Assembly (NCBI GenBank): GCA_951406725.2
Contig: OX597827.1
Coordinates: forward strand, 59,644,001 to 59,708,000
Source of the DNA: Octopus vulgaris
Taxonomy: Eukaryota
Direction of reading: 5' to 3'
Length of the DNA: 64,000 nucleotides
The notes under the pieces were generated by a model. It searched no databases, was not told the origin of the DNA, and saw only the letters and a program-made list of their open reading frames with translations. This document shows, in pieces, positions 25,507-47,258 of the stretch; positions within the stretch are counted from its first letter, which is position 1; every line of letters begins with the position of its first letter. Position numbers and translations under genes: made by a program.

Positions 25507-25571
25507 ATTTAGAGAAAAACCATTGGTTTCACATCTAGCGTGAACTAGACTGCTCTTCAGTTTCTCTAAAT
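25507..25571 (-). ncRNA. Type-I hammerhead ribozyme, near intact, Slit-sense
   Basis: ATTTAGAGAAA CTGAAGA GCAGTCTAG-TTCACG-CTAGATGT GAAAC CAATG GTT TTTCTCTAAAT. 11-bp helix I, full core, GUU triplet. Confidence 0.85.
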
Positions 25572-45900: not shown

Positions 45901-46309
45901 AAAGCTTATCGAGAGCGTGTGTACAAATTTTTATTAAATGTATATTTTGTTTTTGCGAGGTTAGAATCGTTTTGTCAAATTAGCAAACACGTCCTCAAAT
46001 ACCTCACACTCTTTATATGCATATATGAACATATAGATATGCACACACACGCGCGCATACACACACGCACACGCGCGCGCACATACACACACATACAAAT
46101 ATATACATGAATATATATGTGTATAGATATATATACATACATACATATATATTTCTTTACTACCCACAAGGGGCTAAACATAGAGGAGACAAACAAGTAC
46201 AGACAAAGGGATTAAGTCGATTACATCGACCTCAGTGGGTAACTCTTACTTAATTTATCGACCCCGAAAGGATGAAAGGCAAAATACATACATACATATA
46301 TATATATAC

Positions 46310-46359
<50 letters not shown>

Positions 46360-46366
<7 letters not shown>

Positions 46367-46789
46367 GGTTGTATACTGTCAATCTAACAAGAACGTGACA
46401 TAGGGGGTACACCACCGTTATATAGCCCTAGGAGGCATCGAACGCCTCCTGACAGCTTCGACACATTTTATCCTGTGTCCTTATATACACATACGAAGGG
46501 GAGACAAACACCCCCAACTGCCGGAACTGCATCTAGGGACACCGTGTTTCAGGATCATTGTCCTTCATCGGCCTAGAGTAGCAGACACCGGTCAGCTCGC
46601 GATGTCTGTCTCGACTTCGCATCTGTATATATCTATAGTCAGTGAAGTCTATTCACTGATTATCAAAATAAGAAATATTGAGTTTCCCCCTACTGTCACG
46701 TTCTTGTTAGATTGACAGTATACAACCATTATATCGCTCCACCACCGTACACCTCTCTACGAGAGATTTAGAAACTCAATATTTCTTAT
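46360..46789 (-). mobile_element. (TA)n-inserted Penelope/retrozyme-like element with nested inverted termini
   Basis: Inverted repeats 46360-46407/46686-46734 and 46668-46686/46771-46789, with a hammerhead inside. Confidence 0.75.
46516..46597 (-). ncRNA. Type-I hammerhead ribozyme with extended helix I, Slit-sense
   Basis: TCTAGG CCGATGA AGGA-CAATGA-TCCT GAAAC ACGGT GTC CCTAGA. Helix I continues through internal loops via CTGC/GCAG, CCGG/CCGG and AGCTG/CAGTT. Confidence 0.85.
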
Positions 46790-47258
46790 ATATATATATA
46801 TATATATCATATACAAACAGGCATAAATATATACATACAAATATACATACATACACACATACATAGATACGACATACATACATACATGCATACATACATA
46901 CATACATACATACATACATACATACATGAACCTGCGTTCTGTCATAGTCCCTAATTAATTTTTTAATTCCTTATGGAGGGCACTTAATGTTTCCAGATGA
47001 ACTGAGACGTGTAATGTGAAGGACATATGTATCTACTATTTACACACACACACACAAGCGCGCATTCACACACACATATACACACATTCGAACGTATATA
47101 TGCATACATATGTATATATATGTGTGTGTGTAGGGAAAATACATGTGCGTGTATCATATAAACCATACATATATGCGTGTATGTACGTACTTCCCTCTCT
47201 ATGTATAAAAATTATATATATTTCTATGTATGCATATATGTATACATACATACATGCG

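Follow-up and report, generated by a model that had tools for sequence, protein, structure and literature searches.

Introduction

The copying of animal retrozymes back into DNA has mostly been inferred from their co-occurrence with Penelope-like elements (PLEs). Metazoan non-LTR retrozymes, as described in PMC7229834 and 10.64898/2026.07.22.740005, are strongly self-paired, non-coding units of 150 to 450 nt (350 to 390 nt in mussel) that carry a type I hammerhead, occur in tandem copies, make target duplications longer than 4 bp and share their genomes with PLEs; introns hold about 44% of the retrozyme copies of Xenopus tropicalis (10.64898/2026.07.22.740005). Here, we report a repeat unit of 364 to 365 nt from Octopus vulgaris, followed up from a hammerhead in a large intron. 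The unit shares the size, hammerhead type, tandem copies, self-pairing, target duplications and PLE-bearing genome of the metazoan non-LTR retrozymes and fits as a variant of them. Most of its subfamilies differ in having a U4C core. A further difference is that its insertions are mostly dispersed, with head-to-head arms and two fixed ends (the word “inverted” is absent from the main text of PMC7229834); its cleavage and circles are putative.

The insertions resemble PLEs of the Neptune and Poseidon clades (PMC8557442, PMC11167929) in several ways: they are truncated at the 5′ side and carry an inverted 5′ copy, one end has a tail, the targets are AT-rich or (TA)n, and there are two internal reverse transcriptase (RT) start sites. 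The PLE hallmarks given in PMC8557442 are microsatellite targets, inverted copies with 5′ truncation and a tail that is often confined to one end; PMC11167929 describes the PLE tail as the stretch between the two start sites, with no difference between strands in vitro. The octopus unit departs from the PLEs of these papers in having no open reading frame (ORF), a 55-nt tail (PLEs, 30 to 40 nt) and a full-size hammerhead, and from the in vitro result in that its start sites, called A and B here, pair almost strictly with each other.

The hammerhead itself is like that of Schistosoma Sm-alpha as given in PMC2632901, with UAC in the internal loop of helix I, a U on the opposite strand and a C...A hexaloop II (CAAUGA here, CAAAUA in Schistosoma); it differs in its U4C, in a single U as the whole 3′ side of the internal loop and in being a predicted ribozyme. 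With the RECK hammerhead and the CPEB3 HDV-like ribozyme it shares a sense position in a large intron, but those are conserved across mammals or amniotes, and the octopus copy is a near-identical member of a recently spread repeat.

Hammerhead motif and gene context

The window, which is the whole stretch of DNA analysed (64,000 nt; GenBank assembly GCA_951406725.2, contig OX597827.1, positions 59,644,001 to 59,708,000), holds the following elements of the motif.

46516-46597, minus strand: type I hammerhead, predicted cut at 46538/46537 (C17 = 46538)
46580-46578, minus strand: UAC bulge
46577-46572 with 46537-46532, minus strand: proximal helix I, UCUAGG/CCUAGA
46571-46565, minus strand: core CCGAUGA (U4C), with C3 at 46571
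46564-46551, minus strand: helix II, AGGA/UCCU, with hexaloop CAAUGA (loop II, 46560-46555)
46550-46547, minus strand: GAAA
46547-46539, minus strand: helix III, ACA-CGG-UGU, near-palindromic
46531, minus strand: unpaired U

The three-way junction has the CUGANGA, GAAA and NUH core with every core position present except U4C. Helix I counts 19 bp within 46516-46597 and runs on as a much longer rod in a 136-nt fold. A strict descriptor matched once in the window and not at all in 200 of 200 block-shuffled windows. The motif stands as the first-pass annotation had described it (U4C core, GAAA, 4-bp helix II with a 6-nt loop, 19-bp helix I and cut site). The minus-strand fold had a z score of −3.07 (0 of 200 shuffles equally good), and helices I and II form with P of 0.86 to 1.0 in a 601-nt context. 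Searched with Rfam models, the motif gave no hammerhead match at the gathering threshold or at E up to 10; RF00163 matches six other places in the genome.

A nearest-neighbour model, which takes no account of tertiary contacts, does not form helix III; C3-C4-G5 pairs with the CGG loop in a fold 5.4 kcal/mol lower than the hammerhead. The same pairing competes in the natural U4 copy of this copy’s subfamily (gap, 3.2 kcal/mol), and the gaps in other forms are 2.3 to 5.8 kcal/mol; by this fold model, C4 makes the inactive pairing with loop III stronger. The U4C variant occurs in nature: in a viroid, it causes a considerable loss of in vitro activity, and the viroid is nevertheless sustained by it in vivo (PMC3088659). 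Variant and competing fold suggest that a lone copy in this intron would be slow. The residues for the contact between helix I and loop II are present, as proposed earlier. Fast cleavage is unsupported, in view of U4C and of the fold that blocks helix III, and some cleavage would be compatible with these results.

Two exons encoding leucine-rich repeats (LRRs) flank the motif.

63586-63515, minus strand: 72-nt LRR exon upstream of the intron, assigned to slit; donor to cut, 16,977 nt
10986-10915, minus strand: 72-nt LRR exon downstream of the intron, assigned to slit; cut to acceptor, 35,551 nt

Both have AG/GT sites and matching phase, and the intron between them is 52,528 nt long. Exons about 250 to 290 kb downstream on the same strand match SLIT2 domains D2 (E = 3.9e-24) and D4 (E = 3.1e-23), and the gene is very probably slit; we infer that the window exons belong to it and are consecutive. 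Motif and exons being all on the minus strand, the sense orientation in an intron of about 52.5 kb was correctly noted before. In the downstream region (L239 and L240; G000:C14:59365000-59398600) lie the first EGF-like exon of slit and, for domains 2 and 4, its LRRCT exons; the gene would span well over 340 kb if the window exons are part of it.

Insertion holding the hammerhead

The hammerhead lies inside a 430-bp insertion (46360-46789) made of two head-to-head pieces of one 364- to 365-nt unit, set between (TA)n runs.

46284-46361: left flank, (TA)n-rich microsatellite target
46360-46686, minus strand: long arm, beginning at unit position 216, crossing the cut site and ending at 179 (3′ end of type A); 98.8% identical to the tandem unit at locus L008 over 328 nt
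46686-46789, plus strand: short inverted arm, unit positions 131-234 (3′ end of type B, which is A plus a 55-nt tail); 100% identical to the L008 unit
46360-46407 with 46686-46734: 49-bp inverted repeat formed by the two arms (left half and partner)
46788-46807: right flank, (TA)n, with no readable target duplication

The arms overlap by 1 nt at their junction (46686). Their 49-bp inverted repeat would pair in the slit pre-mRNA, with helices I and II staying closed. Compared with nine arms at eight other loci over 218 nt, the copy in slit has no substitution and one 1-nt gap; outside that stretch, it has one private substitution, in distal helix I. By these identities, the insertion, which holds a single hammerhead, is a very young copy of a dispersed repeat, and the motif looked “best-formed” at first pass because the copy is new.

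Repeat family

Elsewhere, the non-coding unit is found in tandem with a period of 364 to 365 nt, one type I hammerhead per unit and up to three hammerheads per locus. Its 31-nt U4C core has 221 exact copies in the genome, the U4 form 5 and a reversed control none; a degenerate 20-nt core pattern that also covers older subfamilies has 716 exact matches (control, 0). The unit is strongly self-paired (circular fold, −143.5 kcal/mol; z = −10.7; 0 of 100 shuffles as low). No PLE-coding frame (an ORF for RT plus GIY-YIG) was found within the unit or joined to it in the loci read, and arms longer than one unit continue into the preceding unit, not into coding sequence.

The average difference between the two arms of one locus is 1.9%, and between loci it is 4.7%; the within-locus value was the smaller in 57 of 61 loci. 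Tandem units inside an arm differ at 179 of 9,302 sites. Rare variants are shared by both arms in 12 cases and confined to one arm in 189. This likeness of arms fits one source subfamily per insertion and is not proof of one molecule or circle. Pieces of the unit occur as contigs in four runs that we guess to be RNA (two organism labels), which are silent on strand, level, ends and circles; among the listed runs that hold the unit, none is recorded as RNA. A Pol III B-box-like GTTCGATGC was rejected as the family promoter, being found mainly in the youngest subfamily and missing from most older copies. In the literature surveyed, mostly open-access and at title and abstract level, neither the unit family nor its strict end pairing was found in any paper; the supplements of PMC7229834 and 10.64898/2026.07.22.740005 might list the unit.

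The ribozyme is kept across subfamilies. An older one, about 80% identical, retains CCGAUGA, with a G-C pair of helix I turned into A-U and an A-U pair of helix II into G-C. An alignment of 26 of the 119 distinct regions has 97.4% of its cells paired (slid controls, 26 to 56%) and four pairs, in helices I and II, changed on both sides; the rows are related, and the cells amount to few independent events. Helix III has no two-sided change in these 26 rows. In 26 of 26 rows, which were picked by patterns that cover the bulge and the U, the UAC bulge and the lone U are present and loop II begins with C and ends with A. Helix III comes in four sequence forms, all self-complementary (self-duplex, −9.3 to −13.3 kcal/mol), a property shared with hammerheads known to cut as dimers (PMC6155905, PMC7229834). 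The kept self-complementarity suggests that cutting would be favored in tandem units. The U4C core has persisted in subfamilies 14 to 18% apart, and a variant thought slow can thus serve a spreading animal element.

Loci L219 to L224 belong to a small sister subfamily with canonical U4, in which loop II mostly has 5 nt and helix III is mostly a perfect palindrome. A midpoint-rooted tree without outgroup, built from 31 of the 164 rows, places this subfamily among C4 copies (99/95). U4 as the ancestral state was rejected on this nesting, a direction that an outgroup-free tree leaves unsettled; the U4 subfamily may be a reversion.

Insertion ends and target sites

The parsing of insertion ends covered 105 distinct loci from the younger subfamilies; four others duplicated loci counted already and were excluded. 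Two fixed 3′ ends recur, A near unit position 179 and B near 234, 55 nt apart. Two outward-facing 3′ ends were found at 71 of the 105 loci (59 A+B, 0 A+A, 0 B+B, and 12 where one end or both are atypical, a number that includes parsing failures); the other 34, of which 17 are B, 15 are A and 2 are of another kind, have one 5′-truncated end. Similarity to the insertion in slit was the basis for choosing the first 26 loci, which lean to A+B; 40 loci chosen only by core match and position gave 20 A+B, 0 same-end, 3 atypical and 17 single. A further 49 loci, mostly of older subfamilies, read by motifs and 29 of them selected for a B end, gave 11 to 12 A+B and about 2 B+B, and the A+B rule is therefore strong but not absolute. 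The near-strict pairing (59 versus 0 in the younger subfamilies) constrains the origin of the Penelope tail and inversion, which in vitro work has left open.

(TA)n adjoins the insertion on at least one side at 50 of 66 loci and on both sides at 33 of 66. Six loci without long TA runs (L002, L011, L039, L044, L063 and L067) have target duplications of 10 to 12 bp. With two fixed 3′ ends, an inverted 5′-truncated copy and an AT-rich target, the insertions bear a Penelope-type footprint, and so carry directly what for other animal retrozymes is deduced from genomic company.

Among loci chosen for holding the core, 6 of 160 5′ ends lie within 5 nt of the cut site (about 4.8 expected); there being no pile-up, the genome gives no sign of cleavage. 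Single arms with the 5′ end exactly on the predicted cut were seen at L026 (1865-2043) and L015 (1287), and one with its 3′ end there at L069, too few to exceed chance.

Candidate mobilizing enzyme

Two PLE families in the genome are young and have an intact ORF, which is 781 aa long in one (RVT_1 plus GIY-YIG) and 1008 aa in the other; there are also fragments of further families. PLEs were sampled by GIY-YIG and RT searches, from the top candidates of about 6,000 each. The 781-aa family ends in (TA)n at two 3′ sites about 35 nt apart, and its copy at L107 has one of each on opposite strands. BLAST, and local alignment scored against shuffles, gave no match between the unit and any of the families sampled, the 781-aa and 1008-aa ones and the end regions included; the best local alignment was equaled by 4 of 100 shuffles, among 12 comparisons.

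Copies of the 781-aa family (L102 to L107; e.g., G000:C16:20835000-20841000) have a 479-aa ORF upstream of the RT/GIY-YIG ORF and a minimal hammerhead-like motif with a U3/A8-type core. The 1008-aa family (L215 to L218; e.g., G000:C10:97805000-97814900) forms tandem units of about 6.2 kb and carries a minimal hammerhead-like motif in which position 4 is again a C (CCGACGA).

Probable origin of the insertion and possible effect on slit

We consider it probable that the hammerhead came with a non-LTR retrozyme, a protein-free unit of 364 nt that was copied here very recently. A Penelope-like enzyme likely inserted this copy into a TA repeat of the slit intron, and its effect on slit is likely small. 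Tandem or read-through copies of the unit would be transcribed, and the hammerhead would divide the multimers into single units; it probably works best when two hammerheads pair through the self-complementary helix III. Units may circularize. A Penelope-like RT/GIY-YIG protein would nick both strands of AT-rich DNA 10 to 12 nt apart, with one nicked strand primed at unit position ~179 and the other at ~234, and the two cDNAs would stop at variable points and then join head to head. More tentatively, and with a good deal of doubt, we propose that a dimer of a Penelope-type enzyme uses both nicked strands simultaneously to copy a single small RNA, be it a multimer or a circle, that the two strands are obliged to start at different sites of the pair 55 nt apart, and that U4C and the self-complementary helix III confine cutting mainly to tandem units, so that single copies sit unharmed in sense introns such as that of slit. 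The natural U4 and C4 sister subfamilies and the four forms of helix III offer a ready-made test of the start-site and tandem-cutting ideas.

Given the same origin, the single hammerhead might cleave nascent slit RNA at a frequency that reduces or changes the spliced product, a side effect that selection has not shaped; we consider this rather unlikely. Such cutting would draw on a ribozyme in sense to slit, on helices I and II that are predicted to form in long context and on a UAC bulge, lone U and C...A hexaloop matching the Schistosoma contact residues (PMC2632901); with all three contact residues in place, even slow cleavage could touch slit, and the 35,551 nt from cut to acceptor leave time enough for it. 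Fast intronic ribozymes reduce splicing (Fong 2009, as cited in PMC10274809), and retrozyme monomers of coral and mussel are reported to cut at ~0.8 and ~0.1 per min (PMC7229834). However, slow ribozymes were without effect on splicing (Fong 2009, as cited in PMC10274809), one of nine Xenopus dimers was cleaved in vitro (10.64898/2026.07.22.740005), and the insertion has a single hammerhead only, with the activity cost of U4C (PMC3088659) and an inactive pairing predicted 5.4 kcal/mol below the hammerhead fold against 3.2 in the natural U4 copy. Selection on the motif, as in a domesticated slit regulator of the RECK hammerhead or CPEB3 ribozyme type, is very improbable: it is favored by the precedents for intronic ribozymes (PMC6155905, PMC10274809) and by the fact that the motif lies in sense within a neural gene’s large intron, but the copy is free of substitutions relative to dispersed copies along 218 nt, has the family’s ordinary structure and TA target, and shares intron and strand with a second hammerhead-like repeat of another family. 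The earlier view of the ribozyme as a feature of slit, with a possible part in its processing, is unsupported, since it is one of hundreds of mobile copies and shows no substitution against nine arms at eight other loci. With hundreds of dispersed copies and so young an insertion, its position in the slit intron is most likely chance. For slit itself there is probably no consequence, and the case warns that a perfect intronic hammerhead can be the newest copy of a transposon.

Two other readings concern the nature of the unit. Its end structure is that of PLEs, Xenopus retrozymes resemble the end repeats (pLTRs) of PLEs (10.64898/2026.07.22.740005), and PLE families were sampled in part, all of which would suit a unit that is the detached pLTR of an autonomous PLE, the insertions being 5′-truncated copies of that element and not of a self-standing retrozyme. 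We hold this to be quite improbable, because arms longer than one unit enter the previous unit and not coding sequence, loci have up to three hammerheads, the end regions of the PLE families tested do not match, and the hammerhead is of full size, having both a helix III and the contact loops, against the minimal ones usual in PLEs (PMC6155905). A miniature DNA transposon (MITE) with 49-bp terminal inverted repeats and a TA target, happening to hold a hammerhead, would account for an inverted repeat that adjoins TA runs. This is hardly credible and was rejected, as the inverted part varies by locus, the two ends are different unit positions, 34 of the 105 loci have one truncated end and the duplications are 10 to 12 bp.

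Other repeats

A second type I hammerhead-like motif occurs in the same intron and on the same strand (25507-25571, minus), with a canonical CUGAAGA core, an 11-bp helix I and a long helix II. It lies between (TA)n runs, has a fold z score of only −1.81 and belongs to an older, different repeat family, with best relatives 80 to 92% identical and 234 candidates. Three 108-nt Rfam Hammerhead_1 matches with a long helix II (L032, L033 and L036) represent a hammerhead repeat family unrelated to the unit by BLAST. Directly left of the TA run, positions 46150-46283 hold a fragment of another common dispersed repeat, which presumably resembles a SINE-type repeat and has its like in many translated flanks.
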